Shown piece by piece: positions 2,406-18,034 of a stretch of 64,000 nt of DNA (positions within the stretch are counted from its first letter, which is position 1; the number at the start of each line of letters is the position of its first letter). Source of the DNA: Candidatus Berkelbacteria bacterium (GTDB lineage Bacteria; Patescibacteriota; UBA1384; JACPKC01); contig JACPKC010000010.1 in the NCBI GenBank assembly GCA_016187225.1, forward strand, positions 3,541 to 67,540. Reading direction: 5' to 3'. Under the pieces are notes generated by a model that was not told the origin of the DNA, made no database searches, and saw only the letters and a program-made list of their open reading frames with translations. The position numbers were made by a program, and so were the translations under genes.

Positions 2406-2438
2406 TTAATTAGGTAAGTAGCCCTATACCTTTTCGAT

Positions 2439-2462
2439 AAAAAAAAGCGCCCCGAAGGGCGC
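2439..2462 (-). terminator. Rho-independent terminator for the minus-strand gene ending at 2495
   Basis: The stem gcgccc/gggcgc has a cgaa loop. On the minus strand it is followed by a run of 8 T (the complement of the A8 at 2439-2446). Confidence 0.7.
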
Positions 2463-2494
2463 TTGACTTGATATCTCTTACCCTCCACTCGAAC

Positions 2495-3040
2495 CTATAA
2501 CGCAATAAATTCGAGTTCTTGAGGGTGAATCACCCTCATCCCTATCTCCTTGACGGTGAGAGCCTTGGCCCTCATCTCTCTTCGTGAATGGGGATAATTA
2601 CATACCCTCTTTCGATACTCGTGCAGACGAATCTGCGCTAGAAGTATCGGCGAGATGAGGTACAGGCCTGGCGCCCTGGGGTTGTTTTTGGTTTTCAGCC
2701 CCCAACGCAACGGGAAGCCCTTGCCGTTCATGGGGGCATCGGACAGGCGTTTCCAAAACCACCAGTCGATCCCCTTTGCGAACCTTGCGGGCACGTGATC
2801 ACCTCCCAGGATGAAAACGTCGACGTCCTTGTGAGACGCCAGCATCGCGCCGATGTCATTAACGCGACGCTTCCGCTTAATCCAGATCGAGAGCGCTAGT
2901 CCGCCAATGAGTACTCCAGGAATGTTATGCTCCTTGAGGTACTGATCGGCAGCTAATAGACCAGCGACACCTCTCTTTGGATTACCCGGTGACGGAGGTA
3001 GCTGCATTTGGCGGAGCGTGCAAGATAGTCCGATTGCCAT
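2495..3040 (-). CDS. Hypothetical protein, possibly with a minimal nucleotidyltransferase fold
   Basis: 181 aa. The segment GVLIGGLALSIW...DVDVFILG loosely fits the hG[GS]...DxD NTase signature. There is no firm family assignment. Confidence 0.35.
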   Translation of the reverse strand: MAIGLSCTLRQMQLPPSPGNPKRGVAGLLAADQYLKEHNIPGVLIGGLALSIWIKRKRRVNDIGAMLASHKDVDVFILGGDHVPARFAKGIDWWFWKRLSDAPMNGKGFPLRWGLKTKNNPRAPGLYLISPILLAQIRLHEYRKRVCNYPHSRREMRAKALTVKEIGMRVIHPQELEFIAL

Positions 3041-3052
3041 GATCTCTTATCC

Positions 3053-3448
3053 TTACTCACTAGATCCAGACGGGTCTTCATCGAAATACCGCTGTCTAAG
3101 CGACTCCACGAATCGCCCGTTTTCGAGTTGGGCTTTATAGTTAGTAAGCCCTTGGATGTAGGGAGCCATAAGCTCCTCTAGTCCGATCGTGCTTTGCCCA
3201 CCAGACTCCAAAAACACGACCACCTCTCGGAGGATGCGCAATAGCCCGTCTTTATCGGGCTTCAGGCAAGCCGGAATGCCGGGCAATGTTGCGCCGGCAT
3301 TCTCGACAAGTTCGCGAGCTTGCGCCAGCCAACACTTGGCTTCCTCGTAAGCCACTACGATCTGGAGATATCTCCTGATCTCCGCCTCGGCGAAACCGAG
3401 GACTTCGTACTCTTTGACCATTTGGTCTTCTTCTGCGTTTTTTTCCAT
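3053..3448 (-). CDS. Hypothetical alpha-helical protein (possible partner of the adjacent NTase-like protein)
   Basis: 131 aa acidic helical ORF co-oriented with 2495-3040 and separated from it by 12 bp. No recognisable motif. Confidence 0.35.
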   Translation of the reverse strand: MEKNAEEDQMVKEYEVLGFAEAEIRRYLQIVVAYEEAKCWLAQARELVENAGATLPGIPACLKPDKDGLLRILREVVVFLESGGQSTIGLEELMAPYIQGLTNYKAQLENGRFVESLRQRYFDEDPSGSSE

Positions 3449-4088
3449 GAGTCACCTTGATTCTAATCGGCCCTGAAGACTTGCGGGCTGGTATCCAGCC
3501 ACCGATTAGAGAGAGTACTGACACTCCTCATTCTCGAGATGGCATTAGCTATTCATCTAGAAAAGGAGAAGTGTCATTTTTGCTCGTTTTTTTCACTTAC
3601 AAAGAGTTCTCTCGATAAATTCGAGGTCAATCCTCAAGAATTTTCGTCTGACATATCTAATTGTTAGAGGTACAAAAACGAGTAACTGTACCAGATGAGG
3701 GGGGGGTGTCAAGGGGGATTAGTTCAGGTTGAAGTGTCCATCGTGTTGCACCAGCTGCTACTTTTCAACGAACATCCCCCATATTTTAGTCAAGGGAAAT
3801 GTGAATTTAGGCGACCTGTCGTTTATTCGCTTTATTACCGGCACGCTCGCAATGCAACCGAATCGCAACGATGACGGAAGTAAAGATATCGCTAAAGTTC
3901 GTTTGCCGAACTATCCCGAGGTTGAGAACATCCAAGCTCTCAATAGCTGGCTCCCGATTGCGCGCAACATTCAGAAATGCTTCAGCTGCCGTTACTGCAT
4001 CGTGGATAACTACTACAATAAATCGCAAAATAATCAGGAAATTGGGATGCCACCCGCGAATCTCATAGATCAAATTTAATGCGCCCAT

Positions 4089-5090
4089 ATGCATATGGAT
4101 AATGAATATCTTTCATCACCACCATTGCCTGAACCAGGCGTTGAACATGATCAGCCTGCTCGCGTGGCACAAGAAGATTTATTATCTCCTTCGCCGTTAG
4201 AATCGGCTGATTCTAGACACATCTACCAACCGGGCCAGCACGCTTGCCCGGTCAACTGTGCGTACTGCGTCATTACTGAAGTCGAATCGCGCAGAGATTT
4301 GTGGAACAAGAAGACGATCCTGGGCATCAATAAAGCCGCGACGATCCTCAATCCGCCGCCGGATCTAAATGACAAAAAAGCCATTCAGGAATTCTACGAT
4401 TTTCCGGTTGAGCTACTGAAAGGCGATATCGTTGGCTTTAATGCTATCTCGGATCCGTTTTGGCCAAAGTATCAAGATGCATTACAGCATTTTTTAGACA
4501 AAGTCCCGCCAGTGGCCAAGTTGGCAGTCTTCGTCACCAAATGGAATCCATCGGATCGCGTGCTCGATCAACTAGCTGAAATCCCAAATGTTCGCCTGAC
4601 CGTTTCGATTACGGGGCTCGATGGTTTGGAGCGCACAAAAACCACTCACCGATTAAGCGTGTTGCGCCGAGCCAAAAAACGCAATATCCAGACCTTCCCA
4701 ATCGTTCATCCGTATATTGCCGGCATGACAGATTTAAGTTTTTTACCGGAGTTACGGGATGTGGGCTACGACGTGATTGATGTGAAAGGCTTGCGTTATA
4801 ATCCGCAAACCATGAATCGTTGGATGCCGGAAGCGTCGCAACGCGTTTACCAAGGCACGGCCGAACGGGAAATCTTGCCCGAAGATGGCTGGCGAGAACA
4901 AGTTGAAGCGGCCGGTCTGCATTTGATGCCACCACGCGAGTGGTACCGAATTGGCTGGGATAAGCTCACACCCCACCTTGATCAGTCTGAAGCTCAAGAA
5001 CTGACGCAAAAGATTTTTGATCGATCGAATGTGACTTCATCCGATTCAATCCAGGCTGTGTTTGAAGCCGCCGTGAATCGCCGACTCTAA
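4089..5090 (+). CDS. Radical SAM protein (spore-photoproduct-lyase / DNA-photolyase-like family)
   Basis: The CPVNCAYC motif matches the CxxxCxxC 4Fe-4S/SAM signature near the N-terminus. The 333-aa length and the partial TIM-barrel pattern resemble SplB-like proteins. Confidence 0.55.
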   Translation: MHMDNEYLSSPPLPEPGVEHDQPARVAQEDLLSPSPLESADSRHIYQPGQHACPVNCAYCVITEVESRRDLWNKKTILGINKAATILNPPPDLNDKKAIQEFYDFPVELLKGDIVGFNAISDPFWPKYQDALQHFLDKVPPVAKLAVFVTKWNPSDRVLDQLAEIPNVRLTVSITGLDGLERTKTTHRLSVLRRAKKRNIQTFPIVHPYIAGMTDLSFLPELRDVGYDVIDVKGLRYNPQTMNRWMPEASQRVYQGTAEREILPEDGWREQVEAAGLHLMPPREWYRIGWDKLTPHLDQSEAQELTQKIFDRSNVTSSDSIQAVFEAAVNRRL

Positions 5091-5265
5091 CTTGGATAGA
5101 TGAGCGCTTGAAACGTTCGCAGGTGATAGATTATTTGATGGTCTTGTTGTAGCCATGGGACGTTCTGGTTCGGGGCACCATATTGTCGTCAGCCAACTTA
5201 GCTGTCAGGATTGAGCTAGCTTGGCCGCACGGCGGTCAAAATTTAATAACATGAGGTGAGAGCTG

Positions 5266-6657
5266 ATGCTCACACTGGAGAAAACGGTCGGTTTTTTGCC
5301 GATCTATGCCGGGCAGATGGAGCCGGCAAGTTGTAGCCGGGTTTGGCGCGGACCAAAGCCGGTCAATGCGGTGCATCTCATCCATATGGGCAATGTAAAG
5401 GATGTAGCGCGTTTGAACCCCAAGAATCTTAGGATGAAGCAATGGCTTGAAAAGGCCGATGCTCACTGGAATAAACATCACCAGTGGCCATGGTATCTAC
5501 GGGAAGTACTCGACCAACTCGCCTATAAGGCGATCGGTCACATAAAAATGAAAACGCGAGGCATCAGTTCGCAGGCGGTGCTCATTTTTGTGCCATGGCT
5601 GACTAAAGATTTTGAGTTTTCCCGGCACTATAAAACGCATCGCTGTCTGGCGCCACTCCTCAATGATGGGGAGAGTCGGTGTGGCGAGTGCGAGGAATGC
5701 CGATTGTACGATCAGGCCAAAGCGCTCCGCGAGGAAATCTTGGCAGGTATACGGCGCGCTATTAACGCCGCCGCCGAGTATGGAGCGGGATATGTTGGCT
5801 TGGGCGCTTTCACGAGTATCTTCACTGAAAACGGGATACTGGTAGAAAAGGAGTCACCGATTCCGATCACGAGCGGTAGCGACGGCACGGCCTACGGCCT
5901 TCAGCTCTGCATTGAGCGGGCGGCGCGACAGTTGGGTATCTCGCTCAAACGGAGCACGCTGACATTTGTCGGCGCTTCCGGATCGGTTGGTCGGCGTGGC
6001 TGCTTGTTGCTCGCTCGGAGGTTTGGTCGGATCATCCTTTCGGCGCGGAATCGGAGCGGTCTCGAGGGCGTTCGCAAGATGCTTCTCAATAACGGCATCA
6101 AGGAGCGGCGGATTGTTATCGAAACTGACATCAATCGCGCCGTGTCTCAAGCCGATGTGATCGTTTTGGCAACCTCGGCGGAAAGCGCCGCCGAGGTTGC
6201 GCTTGATCATCACGCAATTCGCCCGGGGAGTTTGGTGGCCGACGTGGGCAAGCCGCCTAATTTCGCAACTGACCCCATTGCTTTGGCCCAACTACCGTTT
6301 TTGGTAGTTGACGGAGCGAACATCCGTTTCCCGGGTGAATTTCAGGATGAGTCCTGGAAATTACTCGACCAGGGCGGCCAGAATGCGGTTTGGGGTTGTT
6401 CGGCGGAAACTTTTTTGCGTGGGCTGACTGGCGAGAAGGAAAGTACGTCGGTCGGTTCGCAAAGAAGCATCAAGCCGCTGCTTCAGGTCGTGAGGATGAT
6501 GAAGCGGTACGGCTTTAGAGTGGCGGATTTGCGTTCCGGCGGGTCGCCTATGCCAGTGGCCCGACTGGAAGAGGTGCGGCGAATCCGTCAGCAAGAAAGT
6601 CGCCGGCAAAAAGTCGGCGGCAAGTTTTTTTACCTCATGCCGGCGCGCATGAGGTAG
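5266..6657 (+). CDS. AAR-family (acyl-ACP-reductase-like, shikimate-DH-like Rossmann) oxidoreductase with an extra N-terminal domain
   Basis: The C-terminal 320 aa align by eye to cyanobacterial acyl-ACP reductase. Matching segments are TAYGLQLCIERAARQLGI...TFVGASGSVG, ILSARNRSGL, the conserved Cys context WGCSAETFL, and the C-terminal KRYGF. The N-terminal ~150 aa, with a CGECEEC motif, are unassigned. Confidence 0.5.
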   Translation: MLTLEKTVGFLPIYAGQMEPASCSRVWRGPKPVNAVHLIHMGNVKDVARLNPKNLRMKQWLEKADAHWNKHHQWPWYLREVLDQLAYKAIGHIKMKTRGISSQAVLIFVPWLTKDFEFSRHYKTHRCLAPLLNDGESRCGECEECRLYDQAKALREEILAGIRRAINAAAEYGAGYVGLGAFTSIFTENGILVEKESPIPITSGSDGTAYGLQLCIERAARQLGISLKRSTLTFVGASGSVGRRGCLLLARRFGRIILSARNRSGLEGVRKMLLNNGIKERRIVIETDINRAVSQADVIVLATSAESAAEVALDHHAIRPGSLVADVGKPPNFATDPIALAQLPFLVVDGANIRFPGEFQDESWKLLDQGGQNAVWGCSAETFLRGLTGEKESTSVGSQRSIKPLLQVVRMMKRYGFRVADLRSGGSPMPVARLEEVRRIRQQESRRQKVGGKFFYLMPARMR

Positions 6658-6687: not shown

Positions 6688-6723
6688 TTGTCTAAAAATC
6701 TTCGAGCGTGTAGCCTAATAAAC

Positions 6724-7023
6724 ATGGACGATCAAACGATCAACAAATTGGCCGTGTTGGCGCGGTTGGAGCTTCAGGCTGAAGAGCGGGCGCGGTTTGC
6801 CGCCAATCTTGCGGAAATTATCGCTTACGTCGAACAACTGAATGAAGTTGACGTGGCCGACGTGGAACCGACCAGTCAGGTGACGGGCCTTTTGAATGTG
6901 TTGCGGGAGGATAAGAGGGATGAGGCAAGAGGAATGAGGAAAAAGGAATTGGAGCAAATGGCGCCGGAGATGAGGGAAGGCTACGTCGTCGTGCCAAGCG
7001 TTCTTAGTCAGCCCGATTTATGA
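6724..7023 (+). CDS. gatC: Asp/Glu-tRNA amidotransferase subunit C
   Basis: Typical GatC sequence (ELQAEERARFAANLAEIIAYVEQLNEVDV). It lies immediately upstream of gatA. The ORF track begins at a TTG at 6688. The ATG at 6724 is the more likely start. Confidence 0.8.
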   Translation: MDDQTINKLAVLARLELQAEERARFAANLAEIIAYVEQLNEVDVADVEPTSQVTGLLNVLREDKRDEARGMRKKELEQMAPEMREGYVVVPSVLSQPDL

Positions 7024-7062
7024 TTAGTAATTTTTGATTGATGATTTTTGATTAAATTCATC

Positions 7063-7090
7063 ATGAACTATGAACCATGAACTATGAACC
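7063..7090. repeat. Tandem heptamer repeat (ATGAACT/ATGAACC) x4 overlapping the gatA start codon
   Basis: Directly visible as atgaactatgaaccatgaactatgaacc. The last unit supplies the gatA ATG at 7084. A related ATGAACTATGAACT occurs at the ftsI start (62761-62774). Confidence 0.85.
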
Positions 7091-8616
7091 TTGCCATTCA
7101 AACAATCACCGAAGCCTCTAAGCTTCTCGAAGAAGGAAAAATCTCGTCGCGCGAATTCACTGAAGAACACCTCGAGCGTATTCGCGAACGCGATGAGAGC
7201 ATTCATGCCTATTTAACCGTTGATCGGGCAGGGGCGTTGGAGGCGGCCAGCAAATCCGATGAGCGGCGAGCCGAGGGTAAGAGCTTGGGGCCGCTCGATG
7301 GCATCCCGATCTCGATTAAAGACGTGATCGTCACCGAAGGGATCGAGACGAGGGCCGCCTCAAAGATGTTGGCGGGGTTTGTGCCGCCCTATGACGCGAC
7401 AGTGGTCGCGCGTCTCAAGGCGGCTGGCGCGGTCATTTTAGGCAAGGTCAACTGCGACGCCTGGGCGCACGGCTCAAGCACTGAAAATTCCGATTTCGGG
7501 CCGAGCAAAAATCCTTGGGATTTGGGTCGGGTGCCGGGCGGCTCCTCGGGTGGTTCGGCTGCGGCCGTGGCCGCGGGGCTGGGCTTGGCCTCGATTGGCA
7601 CCGATACCGGCGGCTCGATCCGCCAACCAGCGGCGCTCTGCGGTGTGACCGGCTTAAAGCCAACGTACGGCCGGTTGAGCCGTTATGGTCTCATCGCGAT
7701 GGCCAGCTCGCTTGATTGCCCCGGGCCACTGGCGCGAAGCGCCGAAGACTGCGCGTTGTTATTTGAAGTCATGGCTGGCCGCGATCTGTTGGATTCCACG
7801 AGTTTGCCCACCTCACCCCTTACCCCTTACGCCTCATCACCTGATCGGCCTTTGGCCGAGTTAAAAATCGGCTTGCCCAAAGAATACTTTGCCGAAGGTC
7901 TTGATTCGCAAGTCGGGGCGGCCGTTAATCAAGCCGTGAAAACGCTCGAAAAGTTGGGTGCCACGATCATTGATGTCAGCTTGCCCCTGACGCCTTACGC
8001 CTTACCCGCTTACTATGTGATTATGCCAGCCGAGGTTTCAAGTAACCTCGCTCGCTACGATGGCTTGCGCTATGGCTATAGTGAAATCCGAAATCCGAAA
8101 TCCGAAATCCGAAACGCCAATGAATTGATTATTAAAAATAGAAGCCTTGGCTTTGGCGCCGAGGCGAAGCGGCGGATTATGATGGGCACTTACGTGCTCT
8201 CTTCTGGCTACTACGACGCTTACTACAAAAAAGCGATGCAAGTTCGCACGCTGATCGTCGAGGATTTTCACCAAGTCTTTGATCAAGTCGACGTTTTGGC
8301 CACGCCAACCAGCCCGATTCCAGCCTGGAAGTTAGGCGAGAAGGTGAACGATCCATTGCAAATGTACCTGGCGGATATCTACACCGTCTCGGCCAATCTG
8401 GCCGGCATTCCCGGCATCTCAATTCCTTGCGGCTTTGTCACATCGTCATCCTTGACCGGAAGCGATAGCGTTCCGGATCGAGGATCTCAACCCCTTCCAA
8501 TTGGCCTTCAACTTCTGGGCAATCAACTAGATGAAGAAAAAATCTTGCGCGTCGCCATTGCCTATCAGCGCGCAACCGATTGGCATTTATATGAACCGAA
8601 ATTCGAAAATTTCTAA
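7084..8616 (+). CDS. gatA: Glutamyl-tRNA(Gln) amidotransferase subunit A (amidase family)
   Basis: The amidase signature GGSSGGSAAAVAAG, the Ser-cisSer-Lys triad context and the 510-aa length fit GatA. It contains low-complexity insertions. Confidence 0.9.
   Translation: MNLAIQTITEASKLLEEGKISSREFTEEHLERIRERDESIHAYLTVDRAGALEAASKSDERRAEGKSLGPLDGIPISIKDVIVTEGIETRAASKMLAGFVPPYDATVVARLKAAGAVILGKVNCDAWAHGSSTENSDFGPSKNPWDLGRVPGGSSGGSAAAVAAGLGLASIGTDTGGSIRQPAALCGVTGLKPTYGRLSRYGLIAMASSLDCPGPLARSAEDCALLFEVMAGRDLLDSTSLPTSPLTPYASSPDRPLAELKIGLPKEYFAEGLDSQVGAAVNQAVKTLEKLGATIIDVSLPLTPYALPAYYVIMPAEVSSNLARYDGLRYGYSEIRNPKSEIRNANELIIKNRSLGFGAEAKRRIMMGTYVLSSGYYDAYYKKAMQVRTLIVEDFHQVFDQVDVLATPTSPIPAWKLGEKVNDPLQMYLADIYTVSANLAGIPGISIPCGFVTSSSLTGSDSVPDRGSQPLPIGLQLLGNQLDEEKILRVAIAYQRATDWHLYEPKFENF
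8083..8115. repeat. Heptanucleotide microsatellite (GAAATCC) of about 4.7 copies inside the gatA CDS
   Basis: The sequence gaaatccgaaatccgaaatccgaaatccgaaac encodes SEIRNPKSEIRN. The unit length is not a multiple of 3. Confidence 0.9.
8533..8586. repeat. Direct repeat copy 1: the native gatA 3' end
   Basis: About 54 bp, gaagaaaaaatcttgcgcgtcgccattgcctatcagcgcgcaaccgattggcat, recurs at 9487-9540 with about 89% identity. Confidence 0.8.
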
Positions 8617-8785
8617 TGAACTTGTTGCATAATTCACTTTTTTGTTATTGCGAGCTACGCGAAGCAATCCCGCCATGGCGGGAGACCGTGGCGATGACAA
8701 ATTTAATTATGAAATGACTTCACTGTGCTATGATTGGAACCTCCTGGGAATAGACCTCCTGAAACACTTTTGATATCGTCAATTT

Positions 8786-9004
8786 ATGCCAACGCCAAAT
8801 TATCGGATCAACGTGTTGCTATCGAAGGATGCGCGAGCAGTGCTCGTGCGATCTGCAAAACGCGATCGAATTCCCACTGCCACTAAAGCCGCGCAACTAC
8901 TTGAACTAGCGTTGGATATTGAAGAGGATGCACTCTTTGATCTAGTTGCGTCCAACCGAGATTCCAAGGCTGTTCGATATTTACGTCATACCGAAGCATG
9001 GTAA
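8786..9004 (+). CDS. Type II antitoxin, ribbon-helix-helix (CopG/RelB/ParD-like)
   Basis: 72 aa. The N-terminal beta-strand RINVLLSKDARAVL followed by helices is typical of RHH antitoxins. A RelE/ParE toxin lies downstream. Confidence 0.6.
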   Translation: MPTPNYRINVLLSKDARAVLVRSAKRDRIPTATKAAQLLELALDIEEDALFDLVASNRDSKAVRYLRHTEAW

Positions 9005-9007
9005 CTA

Positions 9008-9168
9008 TGAACTCATTGCATAATTATGTTGGTAGCTACAACGGTTTCGTGCGGGTTGCACACCGAAAACGGCTCGTCACCGATACGGCAGCATCGTCTC
9101 CTCACCGTTTCCAGCGTTCGCACCGCCCGAATCTATCTCGCTCCTAAAAGAATTATGCAATGAGTTCA
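9008..9168. repeat. 161-bp element bounded by perfect 18-bp inverted repeats (tgaactcattgcataatt / aattatgcaatgagttca), lying between the antitoxin and toxin genes
   Basis: The arms are at 9008-9025 and 9151-9168. A third arm-like copy, tgaacttgttgcataatt, sits at 8617-8634 directly after the gatA stop codon. The internal sequence has further hairpin potential. Confidence 0.75.
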
Positions 9169-9441
9169 ATGTACGACTTGCGCTACCACCCTGACGTGGT
9201 GCGAATCGACATCCCGAAAATTTCAAGTACTTGGCGAGTAAAAATTTGCAAAGCCATTGAACAGCGCTTGGCTACTGAACCAGCACTTTATGGCAAACCA
9301 TTACGGCGATCATTAAAGGGTTATCGAAAACTCCGCGTTAGCGACTATCGTATTGTTTTTCGCATTGAAGGTCGAGTTGTTAAAATTCTAATGATTGCTC
9401 ACAGATCAACTGTCTATGAAGTAATTAAAAAACGGACATAG
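9160..9441 (+). CDS. RelE/ParE-family type II toxin
   Basis: 93 aa. The segment RVSDYRIVFRIEGRVVKILMIAHRSTVY matches the RelE/ParE core. The first ATG lies inside the right IR arm. An alternative start exists at 9169. Confidence 0.7.
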   Translation: MSSMYDLRYHPDVVRIDIPKISSTWRVKICKAIEQRLATEPALYGKPLRRSLKGYRKLRVSDYRIVFRIEGRVVKILMIAHRSTVYEVIKKRT

Positions 9442-9486
9442 GAAACGACAACACCGACGAGGTGGAAGACACGAGGTGTTGCCAAG

Positions 9487-9540
9487 AAGAAAAAATTTTA
9501 CGCGGCGCCATTGCCTATCAGCGCGAAAGCGATTGGCATC
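9487..9540. repeat. Direct repeat copy 2: a degenerate displaced copy of the gatA 3' end
   Basis: The sequence gaagaaaaaattttacgcggcgccattgcctatcagcgcgaaagcgattggcat has about 6 mismatches to 8533-8586. It would encode ...ILRGAIAYQREAIGI followed by a stop. Confidence 0.8.
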
Positions 9541-9612
9541 TAGAATCAGTTCCATATTAACTTGACGCCCACGGAATATGTATCTACATTTTGGTAGACA
9601 CAAAGGAACTAA

Positions 9613-9870
9613 ATGAAGACAAAAATTCAAAAATGGGGCAACAGTTACGCCGTTCGTCTGCCAAAAAAAATCGTCGTCAAGTTGAGCCTCAAGCTTGGCA
9701 GTCCGGTGATGATTGAAGAAGATCGGGGGCAACTGATCGTTAAAAAAGCTCCTCAAGAAAAAGCAGTCACCCACCAAGATTGGGAACAATTCTTGATCCC
9801 AACTGGCAGGAAAAAGAAGAGAAACGTAAGCGATCGTGTCGATGAAATCGTATATGGCGTATCTCGTTGA
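9613..9870 (+). CDS. AbrB/MazE/SpoVT-family small DNA-binding protein (antitoxin-like)
   Basis: The segment IQKWGNSYAVRLPKKIVVKL is the swapped-hairpin AbrB/MazE signature. Its stop codon overlaps the TTG start of the following large ORF. Confidence 0.7.
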   Translation: MKTKIQKWGNSYAVRLPKKIVVKLSLKLGSPVMIEEDRGQLIVKKAPQEKAVTHQDWEQFLIPTGRKKKRNVSDRVDEIVYGVSR

Positions 9871-9944
9871 TAGTTCGGTTTGGATTGCACTATATTTCAA
9901 AAACGATCCGCACTAAGCTTTATAAATACATTGAAGCTATTATT

Positions 9945-12863
9945 ATGTCGAAAGAAATATTTCGTCCAAAAGAGCCAGAAGAACTACAAGAGCAGTTAGG
10001 AAATGCTGAAGCCCAATATGGGGTTCCTCTCTATTCTAGCGAGGCTGAACGAGATCGTATGTTGCGCGCAACGGCTCAAGAGTTAGCAGAAGTGTATCCA
10101 TTAAAGTATCGAGCGTATAAAGCTTCACTTCTAGCCACTCGACGTAACACCGAACCGCCTCTAGAAGTTAGTAGATGGATTGGAGCAATTAATAAAATTG
10201 AACGCTACATTGCCAAATTAGACACCGAATCCAATCTAAAACTACGCGAACATCAACAAGCAGTTTTTGATGATCTCCTTGATTTTTTTGAGGCCGGTTA
10301 TCATTCTGGGTATATCAAACTACCAACCGGCGCGGGCAAGACGGCCATCTTTCTTAAGCTTGCGGAAGTAACAGGGTTAAGAACTTTAATCCTTGTCCCC
10401 TCCGTAGCCCTCGTTGAACAAACCATTGAGAAAATTCAAGAATACCAACTTGGTCTCAATGCTTCTGCGTATTATAGCCACGGAAAAAATTTGTCTGGTC
10501 AAATCGTTGTCTGCACTTACCAGAGTTTTGAGAAGTTTTTGCGTGAAAGCAATGCGCAGAATCAAAAATACGAGCTGATTGTCACTGATGAAGCTCACCG
10601 ATCTCTAACAGACGCAAGGAAAAAGGCCGTCAAAGAACTGACCGACGATAGTGTTGTGATCGCTCTAACGGCAACACCCGATTTCAATGAAAAAAAAACT
10701 GTCCGTAACTCCTATGGAACTTTGATTCACGAAATGACAATCAATGAGGCAATTCTAAGCGGGATTCTTTCAGGCGTTAGATGCGTTTACCTCAAGACCA
10801 AGGTCGATCTTAGCAAAATGCCCGCCACCCCGTCTGGCGACTATCGGGAAGATGAACTCGAGAAAATATTGAACATCACTGCAAGAAACAAGGCCGCTCT
10901 TTCTTTTATCGATCAGCAGGCGTTTCGTGATCAACGAGGGCAACTTAAGCGCACGGTTACTTTTTGCATTTCGATTAATCATGCCGAGAGAATTGCTCAA
11001 ATGGCTCAAGAACGCGGAATTGCGGCCGAAGCAATCCATAGTGAACAAACTCATGAAGAACGCAGCGCGATTCTTAAGCGCTACAGCAACGGTCAGACTC
11101 GCTTACTGGCTACGGTGACAGCGCTCGCCGAGGGGTGGGATGAACCCAAGACGGAGATTATTTTAAACCTCCGTCCGACTCTCTCGGCAGTCTTAGCTGA
11201 ACAACGATTGGGCCGGGGACTTAGAACTAGCCCAGGCAAGCGTGGCGCAATCGTAATCGACGTTTTAGATTTTGACGAAAGTCAAGATTCTCACAGTGCA
11301 GGCAGGCCAATCACCGCGCCTCACATTTTACATGGTAATGTGGTATTTCCACCTGGTTTAGACGATGGCCTATCTGGTCCTGGCGGCACACTGATTCGTA
11401 ATGATTTACCAGACATGGAAGGTGTTGAGGCAATTGTGGGGGAAAGAGACGTATACCAACTTTTTGAACGCCTCCAGGGTTCAGACGCGACCACTGCAGG
11501 TGAGAAAATTTTAAAGACCTTGGAAGATGTTAGGTCGATATTTACTCAAGCTGGTTATAGTAGCGATGATGCTCTAAGAAGACTTGCGGCGCTTTCAAAA
11601 GAAAATTTTTTAAAAACAAATTTTACTTCAAACCGCTTTCAGGGCACGGGACGGAGTCTTCTGCGCCGATATTTTATGGATATACTTGGCAAAACTCCTC
11701 CTTCGCAAATTTTATCGCCTGATCTTCAAGATTTCTTCAAAAATGTTCTTGGGGAACTTCGTAAACATGGTCGCATCTTGAATACGCCTAAGCCTGCGCT
11801 TCTCATACTTTTACGGCGTGCCGCCGGTCAGCCAGTATTCGAGGAAGCGCTCAAGATTCATGCGAATATTGCCCAGTCGAATCAGCAACCGGAACTTGCG
11901 ACACTAGATGAGTTTATGCAAGCTTACGATTTGCCTAAACCAGAAAAGGGTTATACAAGATCAGACTTTTTGCAATTTTTAAAAAATTTCATAAGAGATG
12001 ACGCAAGAAGCGATGGCGAATCGCCCAAAAGAAATCGTAAATTGCTCGATCAAAACCACCGAATCACTATACAGAGACTTATAGATGATCTTACCGCCGA
12101 GGAGAAACAGTCGAAATTGCAAGTAGATGTCTGCCAGATAATACGAGAACATCCATATCTCTTCGGAATGACTCTTGAAGAACTAAAACAATCTGACGCG
12201 CGAGCCAAAGATGGGGCGTTTTCAGTCGGATCACTGCTGAATACTCTCAAGATAAAAAATGATACAGAATTAAGGTCTCTCCTGCGCGTTGGTTTTGATG
12301 CTATAGAAATCAGTCAATTGCGAGATAGAGCCAGAGAATCACTCAAGTTAGATTTTGAAAAGAAAAAATTTTCGCGTTTTATTACGCCAGAACGTTTTTC
12401 GCAGTTAACTTTTTTGCTTTTTGGTCAAGAACTCCCTGGCGAGTCTATCTATACATTCTTTGGGTTACCACGCAACCCAAGTCGTGAACAGTTTATTTCT
12501 CTAATCGATAGCATTATGGATGAGGTCTTTGCTAAACCGTTTTCACCCATGGATCCAGAGATCGTCATTCCTGCTATTAAAGATTCTCTAGGTCAGCAAG
12601 CAGTTTGGCCAAGATTTGAAGATTTGGGGAACGTGCGTTTACGTTCAGGATCAATTGATCCGAATGATGCGTCTTTGCGCACACTCTATGATCTCGTCGA
12701 TCGGTGGAATCTAGCTAGAACGGGCCAGGTAATAGAGCTTACGCGGGATGACTATGAACGATTTAAACGCGTATTCAAAACAGCATTGCCTAGCTTAGGT
12801 GATAAGAAAACTGCTATGGCTGATTTGCTTCGAGCGAGAATGAAGCATAGAGAAGGAAAATGA
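9945..12863 (+). CDS. Superfamily-2 helicase (ResIII / DEAH-type) with a C-terminal domain of about 500 aa of unknown function
   Basis: The helicase motifs are present: motif I LPTGAGKT, motif II TDEAHRS, motif III LTATP and motif VI QRLGRGLR. The ORF track starts at a TTG at 9867. The ATG at 9945 (MSKEIFRPK) is the more likely start. The C-terminal half is helical with no recognisable motif. Confidence 0.7.
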   Translation: MSKEIFRPKEPEELQEQLGNAEAQYGVPLYSSEAERDRMLRATAQELAEVYPLKYRAYKASLLATRRNTEPPLEVSRWIGAINKIERYIAKLDTESNLKLREHQQAVFDDLLDFFEAGYHSGYIKLPTGAGKTAIFLKLAEVTGLRTLILVPSVALVEQTIEKIQEYQLGLNASAYYSHGKNLSGQIVVCTYQSFEKFLRESNAQNQKYELIVTDEAHRSLTDARKKAVKELTDDSVVIALTATPDFNEKKTVRNSYGTLIHEMTINEAILSGILSGVRCVYLKTKVDLSKMPATPSGDYREDELEKILNITARNKAALSFIDQQAFRDQRGQLKRTVTFCISINHAERIAQMAQERGIAAEAIHSEQTHEERSAILKRYSNGQTRLLATVTALAEGWDEPKTEIILNLRPTLSAVLAEQRLGRGLRTSPGKRGAIVIDVLDFDESQDSHSAGRPITAPHILHGNVVFPPGLDDGLSGPGGTLIRNDLPDMEGVEAIVGERDVYQLFERLQGSDATTAGEKILKTLEDVRSIFTQAGYSSDDALRRLAALSKENFLKTNFTSNRFQGTGRSLLRRYFMDILGKTPPSQILSPDLQDFFKNVLGELRKHGRILNTPKPALLILLRRAAGQPVFEEALKIHANIAQSNQQPELATLDEFMQAYDLPKPEKGYTRSDFLQFLKNFIRDDARSDGESPKRNRKLLDQNHRITIQRLIDDLTAEEKQSKLQVDVCQIIREHPYLFGMTLEELKQSDARAKDGAFSVGSLLNTLKIKNDTELRSLLRVGFDAIEISQLRDRARESLKLDFEKKKFSRFITPERFSQLTFLLFGQELPGESIYTFFGLPRNPSREQFISLIDSIMDEVFAKPFSPMDPEIVIPAIKDSLGQQAVWPRFEDLGNVRLRSGSIDPNDASLRTLYDLVDRWNLARTGQVIELTRDDYERFKRVFKTALPSLGDKKTAMADLLRARMKHREGK

Positions 12864-12878
12864 AAGCAATCTTGAACG

Positions 12879-13322
12879 ATGTCTCTTTACCATAAAAAAC
12901 AAGCCGAGCCTTCAATGATCGGCAATATCTTTATTCAACTCGGGCGGGCTCTAGCTGGCTTGTGGCGGTTGATTTTTGGCTCAAAAGCAAAAAAACTCGA
13001 TGCGGCGAGGATGCTCGCCCAATTTGCCGAGATTGAGCGTCTGCTCGATTCGGGCGACTCAATCCACGCCTCGCAGGCGATCGTCCGGGCCGATAGTTTT
13101 TTAGATGCGGTGATGCGCCAAGTCGGCGGGCAAGGCAGTTCATTTGGCGAACGAGTCAGAAGCCTTGAAGCGCGTTTTGAGCGAAGCCTCTATCAGCAAA
13201 TCTGGGAGGCCCACAAGCTGCGCAACTTAATCGCCCATGAACATCCGCAGATTACTGTCGGTCAGGCACGATCAGTGTTACAGACATTTAGAAAAGCAGC
13301 TTCTGTTTTAGGAGCGTTCTAA
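12879..13322 (+). CDS. Hypothetical protein with a HEPN-like Rx4H motif
   Basis: 147 aa. KLRNLIAHEH fits the HEPN R-x4-6-H signature near the C-terminus. There is an N-terminal hydrophobic segment. Confidence 0.4.
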   Translation: MSLYHKKQAEPSMIGNIFIQLGRALAGLWRLIFGSKAKKLDAARMLAQFAEIERLLDSGDSIHASQAIVRADSFLDAVMRQVGGQGSSFGERVRSLEARFERSLYQQIWEAHKLRNLIAHEHPQITVGQARSVLQTFRKAASVLGAF

Positions 13323-13723
13323 TGATGAGTAGCGAAGTAGTAAGTAGCGAAGTAGCAAAGTTTGTTCGAACCGATGGCTTCGAGAGTTTGGTACTTTGGC
13401 AAAAGGCGATGGACCTTGTGACGGAAATTTATCGGTTCAGTGAACACTTTCCAAAAACAGAAGTCTATGGATTGACATCGCAACTACGAAGAGCAGCCAG
13501 TTCAATCCCGGCCAATGTTGCTGAAGGGTACGGTCGGTCATCAATCAAGGAAGAGCAACGCTTTCTTTCGATTGCCTATGGCTCACTCATGGAAGTTGAG
13601 ACCTTCTTAATTTTGGCTCAAAGGCTGGGCTATCTAAACGATCACCAATTTGTCCAACTAAATACGCTTCGTGGAGACGTCGGTAGCTTATTGATTGGTT
13701 ATAGAAGGAGTAAGCAGGAGTAG
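13322..13723 (+). CDS. Four-helix-bundle protein (23S rRNA intervening-sequence protein family, PF05635/TIGR02436-like)
   Basis: The segment LWQKAMDLVTEIYRFSEHFPKTEVYGLTSQLRRAASSIPANVAEGYGR is the family signature. The N-terminus carries a 15-bp tandem duplication at 13329-13358. Confidence 0.7.
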   Translation: MMSSEVVSSEVAKFVRTDGFESLVLWQKAMDLVTEIYRFSEHFPKTEVYGLTSQLRRAASSIPANVAEGYGRSSIKEEQRFLSIAYGSLMEVETFLILAQRLGYLNDHQFVQLNTLRGDVGSLLIGYRRSKQE

Positions 13724-13748
13724 CCTTTGCTACCTGCTACATTGCTAC

Positions 13749-15209
13749 ATGGCTACTATTCAATACGAAGTCACCATTGGCATGGAAATTCATGCCGAGT
13801 TGGCGACCAAGACTAAGATGTTTTGTGGTTGCCTGAACGCGCCGTTTGATTCGCCAGCTGGCGGAGGGCCTAACGCCAATGTCTGCCCAGTCTGTTTGGC
13901 GTTGCCCGGATCATTGCCGGTGATGAACCGACAGGCGATTGAGTGGGCGGTCGATCTTGGTTTTGATCTCGGATCAAAGATCGCCGAATTCACCAAGTGG
14001 GATCGAAAAAATTACTTCTATCCCGATCTGCCGAAAGGCTACCAAATTAGTCAATATGATTTGCCGCTTTTGACCGGCGGGGCGATCGAATTTAAGCTGG
14101 ACAACGAGATCAGAAAAATAAATTTAACCCGAGTCCATTTGGAGGAAGATACTGGCAAATTAGTCCATTCATCGTCGGGTCGCGAGTCGCTGGTCGATTT
14201 CAATCGAGCGGGGGTGCCGCTCTTAGAGTTGGTGACGGAGCCAGAACTTCATTCGGCCGAGGAGGCGAAGAAGCTTTGCCAGACCTATCAATTTATTCTC
14301 CAGCGGCGGGGCATTGCCCGGGCCGATATGGAAAAAGGGGAGATGAGGTGCGAGGCGAATATCTCAATAAGTCAAAAATCAAAAGTCAAAAGTCAAAAAT
14401 TAGGCACCAAGGTCGAAGTAAAAAATCTTAATAGCTTCCGGGCGGTGGAGCGGGCGATTAAGTATGAGGTCGAGAGGCAGATTGAGACCCTTGATGCGGG
14501 TGGGCAGGTTGAGCAAGAGACGCGGGGTTGGGACGACGCCAAACAGCAAACTTATGTTCAACGCAAAAAAGAGACGGCGGCCGACTATCGCTATTTTCCT
14601 GAACCAGACCTGCCGCCGGTGACGCCGGCAAATCTTTGGGATTTAGTTGCCAAAGAGCGCGATGCTTTGCCCTATCCGCATGAAGAGGCGGCCGAGGTGA
14701 TTCATGAATTTGGCTTGCCAGCCGAGGTGGCGGAATTGTTTACGACCAACGCCGAAGCCTTTGCTTATTGGGCGGAGTTGCGCGAGGAGTTGGCCGAACC
14801 GACGACCGAGCAGTTAAAACAACTCCAACTCGCCGCCTCGGTTTATGCCAATCTTGACCTTGCCCGCCAGCTTAATCCCACCCAACTGGTCGAATTGGCC
14901 GGGTTGGTGGTAGTCGGCGCCATTTCTCAATCACAAATCCGCGAGGTAGTGGCGGTTGTTATTGAGCGTGGTCTTGAGCCATCTGAAGTGGTCGATCAAT
15001 TAGGGTTAAAACAAATCAGCGATCAAGGCGAAGTCGAAGCCATTGTCGATCAGGTGCTAGGCGAGCAGTCGGAGGTGGTCGCCAAATACCGCTCGGGCAA
15101 GTCTGAAGTCTACGGCTTTCTCTTTGGCCAAGTGATGCGAGTGTCTAGAGGCAAGGCGAATCCGGCTATCATCGGCGAAATTTTAAAAAGGATGCTAAAG
15201 GAGGGATGA
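13749..15209 (+). CDS. gatB: Asp/Glu-tRNA amidotransferase subunit B
   Basis: MATIQYEVTIGMEIHAELATKTKMFCGC and the PEPDLPP motif are classic GatB. The ORF track includes an upstream extension from 13695. The gene is separated from gatA by about 5 kb. Confidence 0.9.
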   Translation: MATIQYEVTIGMEIHAELATKTKMFCGCLNAPFDSPAGGGPNANVCPVCLALPGSLPVMNRQAIEWAVDLGFDLGSKIAEFTKWDRKNYFYPDLPKGYQISQYDLPLLTGGAIEFKLDNEIRKINLTRVHLEEDTGKLVHSSSGRESLVDFNRAGVPLLELVTEPELHSAEEAKKLCQTYQFILQRRGIARADMEKGEMRCEANISISQKSKVKSQKLGTKVEVKNLNSFRAVERAIKYEVERQIETLDAGGQVEQETRGWDDAKQQTYVQRKKETAADYRYFPEPDLPPVTPANLWDLVAKERDALPYPHEEAAEVIHEFGLPAEVAELFTTNAEAFAYWAELREELAEPTTEQLKQLQLAASVYANLDLARQLNPTQLVELAGLVVVGAISQSQIREVVAVVIERGLEPSEVVDQLGLKQISDQGEVEAIVDQVLGEQSEVVAKYRSGKSEVYGFLFGQVMRVSRGKANPAIIGEILKRMLKEG

Positions 15210-15436
15210 TGTCAAAAGAATATCTGGGGAAGATTATTGAGTTAGTCACCGCCGCCTTTGGCTTGGTAGCGGCATTGGCTTGGAATGCGGCCATCCAAGA
15301 ATTGATTGAACGATTTTATCAGGCTGGCGATACCCTGACGGGCAAATTTATCTATGCCTTAGTAATTACTTTGTTCGCCGTGCTTATCACCATGGTGCTT
15401 GCTCGCATGCACGATCGAATCGGCAAGAAAAAGTAA
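15206..15436 (+). CDS. Small membrane protein (hypothetical, two TM helices)
   Basis: 76 aa with two hydrophobic helices. It overlaps the gatB stop codon. Confidence 0.45.
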   Translation: MMSKEYLGKIIELVTAAFGLVAALAWNAAIQELIERFYQAGDTLTGKFIYALVITLFAVLITMVLARMHDRIGKKK

Positions 15437-15470
15437 TAATTTGCTATACTTAGATGGTAAAGGAGGCTGT

Positions 15471-16691
15471 ATGCCTGCGATTACGTATCTTGACGAAGGT
15501 CCAGAGATTCCACCTGGCACAAATTCAATTCGTACTATCAGACAACATCGCCCGCGCGGCGGTTTCATCGTCCTCTTTTTATTTTTAAGTTTGCTGATGG
15601 GGTTTTTAGGGTCGGTCGCAGGTTTTTTATTGCTCACTAATGATGCCGTTGCGACTAAATTAGGCCTGAATACAGACGCAGGCATCGATCTTGGGTTAGG
15701 TAAGACCGAACGAGTAGTTCTTGAGGAAAGTTCAAAGGTCATTGATTCGGTTGCCAAGGTGAGCCCGGCGGTGGTTTCGATTAGCACAACGCGGAATATT
15801 CAGGATCTATTTGGTCGCATGATTGAACAAAAAGGCGGTGGAACTGGTTTTATCATTACATCGGATGGTTTAATTGTTACCAACAAACATGTCGTCTCGG
15901 AGACGGGCGCGACTTATACAGTTTTCACTTCTGATGGGCGAGATTTTGAGGCTAAAGTTTTGGCTCAAGATCCATTAAACGATCTTGCTGTCGTGAAGAT
16001 TGAAGCGACTGGTTTGCCAGTGGTTGAACTCGGGAGTTCGACTGACCTTAAAATTGGTCAGCATGTGATTGCAATCGGGAATGCCTTGGGCGAATTTAAT
16101 AACTCGGTAACACTTGGTGTTATCTCGGCCAAGGAGCGGCAAATTACTGCCGCTGGCGGGGGCGTTGAAGAAAGTTTAAGCGGTCTCTTGCAGACTGATG
16201 CGGCAATCAATCCTGGTAACTCGGGCGGTCCGCTTGTGAACTTATCCGGTCAAGTCGTGGGCATCAATACTGCCGTTGCGGGTGGGGCCGAGAACATCGG
16301 CTTTGCAATCCCGATCGATGTTGTCAAAAAAGCGATTGAATCGATTAAGGCGACCGGTGAAATTAAACGTCCGATGCTCGGCGTTCGCTATATCCCGGTT
16401 ACTAAGGAATTGGCGAAGGTCAATCAACTGCCAGCCGACTATGGCGTTTGGGTTTTGCCTGGGAGTACGCGAGGCGACGTAGCTGTCTTACCTGGTTCGC
16501 CAGCTGACAAGGCGGGGCTTGAAGAAAACGACATCATCACAGAAATCAATGACCAGCGCGTGGACGAAAATCATACACTAGTTGCTCGCTTGGCTGACTT
16601 CAAGCCAGGTGACAAAGTTACACTGACCGTGATTCAGGCTGGCGAGACGAAGAAAATCGAGGTCACTCTCGGTGAGCTTGAGGCGAATTGA
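15471..16691 (+). CDS. HtrA/DegP-family serine protease with a PDZ domain
   Basis: Trypsin-like motifs are GTGFIITSDGLIVTNKHV, DLAVVKI and GNSGGPLVN. There is a C-terminal PDZ domain. The RBS aaaggagg precedes the ATG at 15471. Confidence 0.85.
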   Translation: MPAITYLDEGPEIPPGTNSIRTIRQHRPRGGFIVLFLFLSLLMGFLGSVAGFLLLTNDAVATKLGLNTDAGIDLGLGKTERVVLEESSKVIDSVAKVSPAVVSISTTRNIQDLFGRMIEQKGGGTGFIITSDGLIVTNKHVVSETGATYTVFTSDGRDFEAKVLAQDPLNDLAVVKIEATGLPVVELGSSTDLKIGQHVIAIGNALGEFNNSVTLGVISAKERQITAAGGGVEESLSGLLQTDAAINPGNSGGPLVNLSGQVVGINTAVAGGAENIGFAIPIDVVKKAIESIKATGEIKRPMLGVRYIPVTKELAKVNQLPADYGVWVLPGSTRGDVAVLPGSPADKAGLEENDIITEINDQRVDENHTLVARLADFKPGDKVTLTVIQAGETKKIEVTLGELEAN

Positions 16692-16714
16692 GTCATTCCG
16701 ATGGCAAGGGTTAG

Positions 16715-17635
16715 TTACTCGATGGCTTCGGGAGATTCATTTTCTAATTCCTGCATAAGTTGATTGATTTTGAGTTCCCGTTCAGCAGTGCGAAGAGCGG
16801 TTATAACTGGCTTGAACTGGCCGCCAAGAACACGTTCAATCATTGAAAAGCTTTTCTGGATTCGGTGATCAGTAATTCTGTCTTGGGGGAAATTATACGT
16901 GCGAATTTTTTCGGAACGGTCACCGGTGCCAATTTGAGTTTTTCGGTCAATTCCAAGGGTTTGTTTTTGTTTTCGTTCTTTGAGCTCAAGGAGGCGAGAG
17001 CGAAGGACGGTGAGCGCTTTTTCCTTATTTTTATATTGTGAACGTTCGTCCTGACAGTTCACAACGATTCCGGTCGGTTGATGAGTGATTCGAACTGCCG
17101 TTTCCACTTTATTCACGTTTTGGCCACCAGCGCCACCCGAACGGTAGGTTTGGATAGTGAGTTCTGTTGGATTGAGATCAATGTCAACCGGTTCTGCGAT
17201 TGGCAGGATAGCCACGGTGACAGTCGAGGTATGAATTCGACCTTGTTTCTCGGTTTGCGGAATTCTTTGAACTCGGTGCACGCCCGATTCAAATTTGAGC
17301 GAATTATACACATCCGCGCCTTGGATTTCTGCGACCAAGGAGCGAAAGCCACCGAGGGGCGTCCGGTTAGAGTCAAGAATAGCTACCTGCCAGCGTTGGG
17401 TTTCGCCGTAGCGTTCGTACATTCTGAAAAGTTCAGCGGCAAAAAGTTCAGCTTCGTCGCCGCCCGTGCCGGCTCTAATTTCAAGGATCACCCCTCGTTC
17501 CTGGTGCGGGTCGGGCGACAGTAAGGCATCTTCGAGCTGACTGATCTCGCTGATCGCAAGTTCGGCCAGCTCGGGGTTACTCTCTTTAAGCGCCCGCGCC
17601 TCTTTGAGTTGTTTCGCCAATTCTTCTCGGTTCAT
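16715..17635 (-). CDS. prfA: Peptide chain release factor 1
   Basis: The GGQ motif sits in [12 protein letters not shown]. The sequence is close to E. coli RF1 across the [11 protein letters not shown]...[10 protein letters not shown] region. The start is set at the internal Met (MNREELAK). Confidence 0.9.
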
Positions 17636-17704
17636 GGCTAAAAGTTTACCAGATAGGAGGAACTTGCAGAAGTGGTTTGAATCTGATACCATCACCCAGA
17701 AATT

Positions 17705-18034
17705 ATGAAGTCAGGAATTCACCCAACCTACTATCCAACTGCCAAGGTTACTTGTAATTGCGGTATGTCTTTTGAAGTTGGCTCGACACAGAGCGAAATT
17801 CGCGTCGAGGTGTGTTCAAATTGCCACCCATTTTATACCGGCAAACAGAATCTGATCGATACTGCTGGTCGAGTCGATAAGTTTGAAGCTCGCCGCAAGC
17901 AAGCTCAAACTTATCAGGCTGAAAAGGCCAAATCCCAGAAAGATTCAGCTCAACCTAAAAGTGAAAAAAAGAGCGGTCGCGATGCTTTGAAGGAACTTCG
18001 TAAAACCGTGCTCCAAAAAGAGGTAATTAAATGA
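17705..18034 (+). CDS. rpmE: 50S ribosomal protein L31 with a Lys-rich C-terminal extension
   Basis: [11 protein letters not shown]...CNCG...[12 protein letters not shown] is the L31 zinc-ribbon signature. Confidence 0.85.

Follow-up and report, generated by a model that had tools for sequence, protein, structure and literature searches.

A toxin-antitoxin cassette bracketed by a duplicated gatA 3′ end inside the gatCAB operon of a Candidatus Berkelbacteria genome

Gene order at the gat locus

We analyzed a stretch of 64,000 nucleotides (nt) from a Candidatus Berkelbacteria genome (assembly GCA_016187225.1, contig JACPKC010000010.1, positions 3,541 to 67,540), called the window below and numbered from its first base. 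In its gatCAB operon, gatC (6688-7023; PF02686, 9e-19; TIGR00135), gatA (7084-8616) and gatB (13749-15209, start approximate; PF02934 and PF02637; NF004012, 530 bits) are co-oriented on the plus strand and are followed by genes for DUF5654 and HtrA. The operon is interrupted by foreign-looking DNA directly behind gatA, and a second copy of the gatA 3′ end lies on the far side of a toxin-antitoxin cassette. The gatA gene itself is intact and functional-looking (TIGR00132, 555 bits, above the cutoff), and its product is 100% identical to an NCBI protein from Candidatus Berkelbacteria (P0001). The gap of 5136 nt between the gatA stop codon and the gatB start is the largest among 97 loci with gatB downstream of gatA, 72 of which have a gap of at most 60 nt. 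It contains, all on the plus strand, genes for an RHH-type antitoxin (8786-9004), a RelE/ParE-family toxin (9169-9441), a MazE/AbrB-like protein (9613-9870), a large helicase (9945-12863), a 147-aa helical protein carrying the motif HKLRNxIAHEHP, here called X (12879-13322), and a 23S_rRNA_IVP four-helix-bundle protein, here called IVP (13322-13723; PF05635, 2.6e-37). This gene content, with gatB starting 5.1 kb past gatA, is as listed in a preliminary description of the window, which had assigned all of it to an accessory island of about 5 kb.

Comparison with relatives narrows that island. Four distinct Berkelbacteria GatA proteins with 66-69% identity to the window protein were available with their genomic context (contigs L161-L166 and L174); the nearest other GatA in the protein search is 71% identical, and GatA scans of genome and metagenome contigs gave relatives at no more than 57% identity among the matches listed. 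In look-ups by exact sequence, neither the GatA nor the PhoU_div protein of the window returned a record. At 66-69% GatA identity, gatA overlaps the gene for X directly and gatB follows, the order being gatC-gatA-X-gatB-DUF5654-HtrA in L163/L164, L165 and the short contig L166 (whose GatA protein is the same as that of L165) and gatC-gatA-X-IVP-gatB in L161/L162. The order in L174 is gatC-gatA-128 aa-X-281 aa-gatB. None of the four distinct relatives has the toxin-antitoxin cassette or the MazE-helicase module; in L161-L166 and L174 gatA is followed by X or another open reading frame (ORF), and these empty sites belong to genomes whose GatA is just 66-69% identical. The DNA that is specific to the window genome amounts to 4.26 kb (8617-12878). 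Thus, the operon is gatC-gatA-X-(IVP)-gatB, into which 4.26 kb were inserted between gatA and X. The preliminary description had also considered that relatives might share the intervening genes, in which case synteny and not insertion would explain the locus; this holds for X and, in L161/L162, for IVP, but not for the toxin-antitoxin and MazE-helicase genes.

X is syntenic in the relatives, being 53-60% identical and located between gatA and gatB in L161-L166 and L174 (for instance L161 11473-11898, L163 11470-11904, L165 11479-11931 and L174 2669-3124). More distant homologues, about 30% identical, occupy the same position in loci L070, L082, L086 and L130. The Berkelbacteria members of this family are all-helical, have 141-151 aa and share an invariant HKLRNxIAHxH (Rx4H, HEPN-like). 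Because Berkelbacteria relatives carry gatC-gatA-X-gatB, this HEPN-motif protein is a conserved member of the operon and not island cargo, as had been supposed, which corrects a trap for annotation posed by a small HEPN-like protein between gatA and gatB. X has no Pfam, NCBIfam or PADLOC family match, and its single-sequence AlphaFold model (predicted local distance difference test score 55) is too poor for a fold search. The protein may be a partner of the amidotransferase that has so far gone unrecognised. The four-helix-bundle protein had likewise been counted as cargo. IVP is found at the same site in L161/L162 with 66% identity, is absent from L163, L165 and L174, and had no PADLOC match; it is an older resident of the X|gatB junction and a variable one. 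Neither of the additional ORFs of L174 (within 2286-3971), 128 aa between gatA and X and 281 aa between X and gatB, has a Pfam match, and both operon junctions are therefore variable in the lineage.

The two inserted modules also look foreign by the GC content at third codon positions (GC3). The gat genes and X range from 0.52 to 0.61 (gatA 0.61, X 0.52, gatB 0.57) and the inserted genes from 0.36 to 0.47 (RHH 0.40, RelE 0.36, helicase 0.37).

Two versions of the gatA 3′ end

The 3′ end of gatA (8533-8589) is repeated at 9486-9542 with 51 of 57 nt identical. A repeat of 54 bp and about 89% identity (8533-8586 and 9487-9540) had been reported in the preliminary description as bracketing the toxin-antitoxin part of the island; the repeat is real, extends slightly further, and has the RHH/RelE cassette between its copies. 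Alignment of the copies with their flanks, as had been proposed there, indicates homologous segments with sharp edges. Both copies share an identical core of 20 nt, CGCCATTGCCTATCAGCGCG, with the six mismatches (copy 1/copy 2: C/T, G/A, T/G, C/A, C/G and T/C) flanking it on both sides. With up to 3 mismatches allowed, the core was found at just two sites, namely the two repeat copies, compared to 0.00 expected from shuffles, and only 4 direct-repeat families of at least 30 nt exist in the whole 64 kb. The 30 nt upstream of the two copies bear no relation to each other. Past the shared residues WHL, the tails measure 27 nt in copy 1 and 18 nt in copy 2 and agree at 6 of 18 positions, a shuffle-like level that would have P = 3e-8 if divergence were uniform at 89% identity.

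Copy 1 and its tail (8533-8616, the tail YEPKFENF and stop codon at 8590-8616) form the terminus that gatA now uses. Copy 2, translated in the gatA frame, reads EEKILRGAIAYQRESDWHLESVPY up to its own stop codon at 9558-9560, and this peptide is a plausible GatA C-terminus when set beside 120 homologues. Since copy 2 runs in frame to its own stop, the segment 9486-9560 (copy 2 plus the tail ESVPY at 9543-9560; 24 codons and a stop, plus strand) is therefore a displaced gatA end, and is referred to as the remnant. Among the 120 homologues the GatA tails past the conserved WH are short and hypervariable between lineages. The tail in use resembles that of one relative (P0004, ending in RDPEF), the remnant tail ESVPY is the odd one among relatives, and the GC3 of the remnant is 0.32, low like the island. 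Because the similarity ends abruptly on both sides and the tails are hypervariable, two alleles of the gene end would fit these sharp-edged copies better than a local duplication followed by drift.

The toxin-antitoxin cassette and its hairpin elements

The cassette between the two gatA ends encodes only the RHH antitoxin and RelE. The 72-aa antitoxin was recognized through homology to genes upstream of RelE: it is 47-54% identical to genes of 72-74 aa directly upstream of RelE in L171, L172 and L173. The protein itself has no Pfam match and was not placed by PDB sequence searches; RHH_5 was matched by two of four antitoxins of the conserved family (best 6.3e-5), the window protein not being among them. 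The toxin is assigned by PF05016 (2.1e-8, 35.1 bits, cutoff 23), and its start is placed by homology at 9169, with the mechanical ORF start at 9160. A 90-aa form (P0241) is 100% identical, and many homologues from the candidate phyla radiation (CPR) are 60-73% identical. With a 72-aa RHH gene followed by a 90-aa RelE gene, and with these CPR homologues, the pair is typical of the type II RelE/ParE-RHH modules of Patescibacteria. In the homologous pairs of L171, L172 and L173 the two genes are adjacent or overlapping, whereas the window pair is split by an element of 161 nt and bracketed by a duplicated gene end. PADLOC gave no match for the pair, and Rfam gave none within 8500-9700.

Two hairpin elements are nested in the cassette and look like miniature inverted-repeat transposable elements (MITEs). 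Element A (106 nt, 8617-8722) starts directly past the gatA stop codon, has 18-nt terminal inverted repeats and folds as a long hairpin (z = -2.7). Element B (161 nt, 9008-9168) has perfect 18-nt inverted termini, folds with -56.3 kcal/mol (z = -4.8) and sits exactly between the antitoxin stop codon (+3 nt) and the RelE start. The termini of both are related to TGAACTCATTGCATAATT, with 4 matches compared to 0.07 expected. Logan contigs assembled from two samples end at the right-hand edge of element B, which suggests that more copies of B occur in the metagenome. No clear target-site duplication was seen at either element, and no transposase was found in the window. A smaller hairpin of the form CAACACC...GGTGTTG (9450-9481, plus strand; -12.3 kcal/mol, z = -2.8) lies between the RelE stop codon and the gatA remnant and is loosely like the AACACCGAG...CTCGGTGTT hairpins found past stop codons in L173.

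Locus L173 is itself rich in such elements. A 35-nt hairpin (AACACCGAGTG...CACTCGGTGTT) occurs there four times within 4663-6349, with three of these copies standing just past a stop codon. It also forms the beginning of a direct repeat of 116 nt (88% identical) that brackets a HicAB-like cassette next to the RHH/RelE genes. Between the toxin-antitoxin promoter and the antitoxin start lies a further element, about 165 nt long, with a repeated ATGCC on its flanks.

The MazE-helicase module

A promoter-like site and a palindrome (9562-9600) lie directly past the gatA remnant and precede the gene for the MazE/AbrB-like protein (SpoVT-AbrB; PF04014, 2.8e-11). The helicase behind it, a superfamily 2 protein of 972 aa, has a RadD-like core with ResIII/DEAD and Helicase_C domains, while its C-terminal half of about 500 aa has no family match. 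The helicase family is rare, the next relative being just 35% identical. PADLOC gave no match for MazE and matched the helicase only through the generic helicase cores of PbeA and restriction enzymes. The helicase stop codon is 15 nt from the X start. That the island was built up by successive insertions, as had been proposed, is credible, with two MITE-like elements nested in the cassette and with gatA|X and X|gatB junctions that differ between relatives.

Other genes with a displaced 3′ end

The preliminary description had pointed to a second case in the window, a PhoU-like 3′ end that brackets a DUF4325 cassette, and this case is confirmed. The PhoU_div (DUF47) gene (574-1194, plus strand; PF01865, 2.1e-25) ends in a repeat that comprises its final 75-76 nt and terminates at the stop codon; 75 of 76 nt are identical between 1119-1194 and 2330-2405, and the latter segment is a displaced remnant of 24 codons and a stop on the plus strand. 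The cassette in between (1195-2329) is on the minus strand and consists of a STAS-like DUF4325 gene (1230-1523) and a gene for a 242-aa protein (1525-2253), with its own promoter and palindromes at 2254-2329. The 242-aa protein has an N-terminal helix-turn-helix (HTH) of the MerR/HTH_17 excisionase type, which scores below the NCBIfam cutoff, and motifs that by eye are GHKL-ATPase-like; its pairing with DUF4325 suggests a partner-switching-like module. Past the remnant, a hairpin and T-run (by eye) on the minus strand are placed to terminate the convergent gene.

A third case of the same design was met in locus L175 (2865-6816) through the genomic context of a helicase homologue, P0123 (36% identical to the window helicase), whose gene lies directly behind one for a XerC/D-like recombinase. 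The last 25 codons of the Xer-like gene, YTHLTDQHLRDVHQAFHGKRRKNQR and a stop, are repeated just past the helicase gene as YAHLTDQHFRDVHKAFRSKRRRKQS and a stop. The duplicated segments measure 78 and 78 nt and are followed by a hairpin (by eye) and the genes for PiT and PhoU_div, here without the second cassette of the window. The GC3 of this helicase is 0.53 compared to 0.64-0.72 in the neighbouring genes. The two helicase loci also share a 12-mer, AAGCAATCTTGA, which stands right past the helicase stop codon in the window (12864-12875) and, in identical form, at L175 6805-6816, where it forms the end of the Xer remnant behind the helicase; it has one other match in 2.4 Mb, and a chance occurrence was estimated at about 5e-5.

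With the PhoU_div case real and the L175 case of the same design, a recurrent process at gene 3′ ends, as had been suggested from the window alone, is therefore credible. The remnants of gatA, PhoU_div and the L175 gene have 24, 24 and 25 codons plus a stop, and the ends that replace them have 27, 24 and 25 codons. To find further cases, the last 30 residues of every ORF of at least 100 aa were used in a scan for C-terminal remnants over 176 loci (2.4 Mb). The scan yielded just these three; all other strong matches were tandem paralogues or DNA repeats. A look-alike that emerged from DNA self-comparison of 171 loci, in L107, was rejected: it is no remnant but a pair of pilin-like paralogues that surround ORF fragments of transposase-like appearance by eye.

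Assembly support

We consider the repeat-cassette structure real because both of its halves recur in independent Logan assemblies made with k = 31. Contigs from two samples cover 9139-22863 and 9139-14398 at 100% identity, and a third contig covers 8088-9167, also at 100%. One half thus holds gatA with copy 1, its tail, element A and the antitoxin, and the other holds RelE, the small hairpin, copy 2, MazE, the helicase, X, IVP and gatB; they overlap by 29 nt (9139-9167) at the inverted terminus of element B. The window does come from a metagenome-assembled genome, the contigs from both samples break inside the cassette within 9139-9167, and the PhoU repeat with its 69 identical bases could confuse small k-mers, so that a chimera, made from different strain variants or from episomal and chromosomal sequence, has to be considered. 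We regard such an artefact as extremely improbable, as each junction is found at 100% identity in the independent assemblies, a 29-nt overlap at the element B terminus is what a multi-copy MITE end is expected to give, the divergence within the gatA and L175 repeats is too great for the copies to collapse in an assembly graph, and the antitoxin and toxin halves need each other.

The start of the third Logan contig coincides exactly with a low-complexity insert in GatA (SEIRNPKSEIRN, at about 8088). A comparable insert in GatB (14369-14405) encodes KSKVKSQK and derives from TCAAAA-type repeats, and a related repeat, rich in T and A, separates gatC from gatA (7011-7051).

Search for recombinases and related elements

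Among the ORFs of at least 110 aa scanned across the 64 kb, none matched integrase, transposase or reverse transcriptase families, including the integrases for which the preliminary description had recommended a search. The only mobile-element proteins in the scanned ORFs are LAGLIDADG endonucleases of the 23S rRNA region, and RecO is present in the window. Hence the proposal that the two gatA segments are attL/attR-like stands as a fair analogy but lacks an integrase in the scanned ORFs, and no motif common to the three target segments was seen by eye. When compared with islands that insert at gene 3′ ends, the locus has the flanking repeats with the target gene intact (8533-8589/9486-9542), has no integrase inside the element, and no related intact, integrase-bearing element with the same att specificity was found among the loci reached. 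Searches of viral contigs with the repeat core, the MITE terminus, the HTH-ATPase protein and the helicase returned empty or chance-level matches, with the one exact match to the MITE terminus being at chance level.

Two other element classes were rejected. The attC sites of integrons are imperfect palindromes of 57-141 nt with R″/R′ boxes, recombined by the IntI integrase; as an integron cassette or a cluster of attC sites lacking an integrase (CALIN), the locus offers just the 32-nt hairpin at 9450-9481, with no GTTRRRY/RYYYAAC boxes by eye and no IntI in the window. Diversity-generating retroelements leave mismatches only at adenines of the template repeat and have a reverse transcriptase nearby; the mismatch pattern here is wrong and no reverse transcriptase was matched in the scanned ORFs. 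IVP scored 8e-4 against the Avd model, below the cutoff.

Other features of the window

The rRNA operon of the window is stretched over 17 kb (30755-47635). The 16S gene is followed by a match to a group II intron domain (32372-32468), a gene for a ClpB-like ATPase, tRNA-Ile (37451-37518) and tRNA-Ala (39145-39212); the region also has a 33-nt tandem repeat (39357-39521) and several ordinary genes, and ends with a 23S gene that contains two LAGLIDADG ORFs (45490-46206 and 46532-47077) and then 5S. Both tRNA genes have the same 12 nt, AAATCTGACTTT, past CCA, and the 1.6 kb between them has ORFs on both strands. This shared sequence could be a processing signal or another insertion scar.

A model for the insertions and its alternatives

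We favour, with about an even chance of being correct, an explanation in which a DNA molecule that brought its own homologous version of the gene end recombined with the resident gene, whose original terminus was thereby displaced. Foreign DNA would have entered the gatA|X junction on at least two occasions. First would have come the MazE-helicase module, which settled exactly between the old gatA stop codon and X. The RHH/RelE cassette, with its own promoter, would have arrived later on DNA that carried the last ~28 codons of gatA from a closely related lineage. Recombination inside the shared 57-nt segment would join the incoming terminus to the resident gatA, which stays intact, and would push the resident's last 24 codons past the cassette, where they would persist as an untranslated in-frame remnant. 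Elements A and B would have inserted into the cassette afterwards. A circular molecule may have been integrated by one crossover; alternatively, homologous sequences may have paired at one end while the other end was joined illegitimately, or an enzyme encoded elsewhere may have acted site-specifically. As the cassette has no recombinase gene, either host recombination functions or such an enzyme would be responsible. The empty site is predicted to read gatA upstream-repeat-GAATCAGTTCCATATTAA-MazE and the circle junction GGTGTTGCCAA-repeat-TATGAACCGAAATTC. The data show the insertion by comparison with relatives, the homology of the repeat copies with its sharp edges, the foreign composition and the recurrence of the design. 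In what order the events took place, in which form the DNA arrived and which enzyme acted we infer, and likewise the state before insertion, since the nearest other GatA is 71% identical and there is no near-identical relative with an empty site.

That missing relative weighs against the displacement model, and so do several other observations. A circular or excised form has no support. No repeat of its own flanks the MazE-helicase module. Inspection of the three duplicated segments and of their junctions by eye revealed no common motif, and the model leaves the length of 24-27 codons of the gene ends in all three cases without explanation. A simple crossover predicts that the tail of copy 1 was imported, yet this tail is closer to that of P0004 than the remnant tail is; with its island-like GC3 of 0.32, the remnant could itself be the imported piece. 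Which gatA copy is native is the main uncertainty.

These last two observations are the reason for keeping a different reading of the remnant as a rival, namely that it is the left end of an imported MazE-helicase block. Here the cassette would already have been behind gatA when a donor fragment gatA-MazE-helicase-X, anchored by homology in X, was joined illegitimately on its left side. One-sided homology combined with an illegitimate join is an established route (PMC3240628); the tail ESVPY, odd among relatives, and the position of the remnant directly against the MazE promoter-like region also agree with it. However, X shows no compositional break (GC3 0.52, like the core genes), the fragment would have to end 24-27 codons before a stop three times by chance, and the PhoU_div and L175 cases are left unexplained, where the cargo lies between the copies and a native terminator hairpin (by eye) stands past the remnant. 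We consider this import distinctly unlikely. A decayed or cis-mobilizable integrative element, in which a tyrosine or serine integrase cut about 80 nt before the gatA stop codon, brought a replacement end and was then lost or acted in trans, seems to us unlikely. Insertion by an integrase classically leaves an intact target gene and direct repeats of its 3′ end, and the gatA segments would be attL and attR; the identical 20-nt core with mismatches on either side, the one design at three genes and the excisionase/MerR-type HTH of the 242-aa protein, below its curated cutoff, all accord with this. Cis-mobilizable elements (CIMEs) are defined as retaining attL and attR after loss of the integration genes, and form tandem arrays by accretion (PMC5704250). 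Against an integrative origin stand the lack of an integrase in the cassettes and in the scanned ORFs, sizes of just 0.95, 1.2 and 3.0 kb with one operon each, and three sites without an obvious common sequence, which therefore call for at least three integrase specificities; it would be unparsimonious for decay to have left, three times independently, one cargo operon between two intact ends. Finally, a local duplication of the target site or in tandem, by an inserting element or replication slippage, followed by drift of the unused copy, would account for the PhoU_div copies, whose 75 of 76 identical nt are as expected soon after a duplication. It accounts poorly for gatA, where the similarity falls from 89% to random at one point and the tails differ in length (27 and 18 nt); no transposase gene was found in the window, and we know of no transposase that makes target duplications of 75-84 nt. 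This makes a local duplication very improbable.

Comparison with known systems

Several described systems resemble the displacement model in part. Integrase islands and CIMEs have in common with the window the 3′-end repeats, the replacement end borne by the element and the accretion at one site (PMC5704250). They differ from the locus in that no integrase was found in the scanned ORFs of the window, in that the units here are single operons of ~1-3 kb, and in that three unrelated targets each have ends of 24-27 codons; we know of no related intact element. By analogy, the structure appears to work like CIME-type att-flanked islands, without the integrase that defines these and with a different size and a regular remnant length.

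In orphan rhs-CT/cdiA-CT modules a new 3′ end with its cargo likewise displaces the previous 3′ end downstream, and the displaced end keeps some upstream coding sequence without translation initiation signals (PMC3967940). There, however, what is displaced is itself a working toxin domain, and the gene is diversified in this way, whereas the piece displaced in the window is a housekeeping terminus without apparent function, accompanied by cargo that bears no relation to the target gene. Homology-facilitated illegitimate recombination needs homology at one end and no enzyme encoded by the element (PMC3240628). Conserved genes such as gatA would be good anchors for it. The outcome generally described for this type of event is an insertion with loss of recipient DNA and no regular duplication of the anchor, unlike the regular duplication seen here. 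The small microcin H47 island of Escherichia coli is reported to be bounded by short direct repeats and to be mobile without a site-specific recombinase of its own (PMC3191183, PMC5426353); it belongs to another organism, has other cargo and is much larger than ~1 kb.

Implications for gene gain in Berkelbacteria

CPR bacteria have tiny genomes with few recognisable mobile elements, and how they gain accessory genes is poorly understood. One possibility, which we put forward as a speculation with a modest chance of being right, is that CPR bacteria, or Berkelbacteria among them, insert cassettes without an element-encoded recombinase through a route not described so far: small, self-contained operons of the toxin-antitoxin, HTH-ATPase/STAS or helicase kind would travel with ~25 codons of the 3′ end of a conserved host gene, replace the terminus of that gene and leave a remnant of fixed length (24-27 codons and a stop). 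If so, the constant remnant length would reflect a mechanistic ruler and not chance. In this window accessory operons are wedged into essential, highly conserved operons without breaking them, and a displaced gene end marks each. Should the pattern be general, genes gained recently by uncultured lineages could be mapped simply and without annotation by scanning for C-terminal remnants, and the constancy of their length would point to a specific, testable recombination mechanism.

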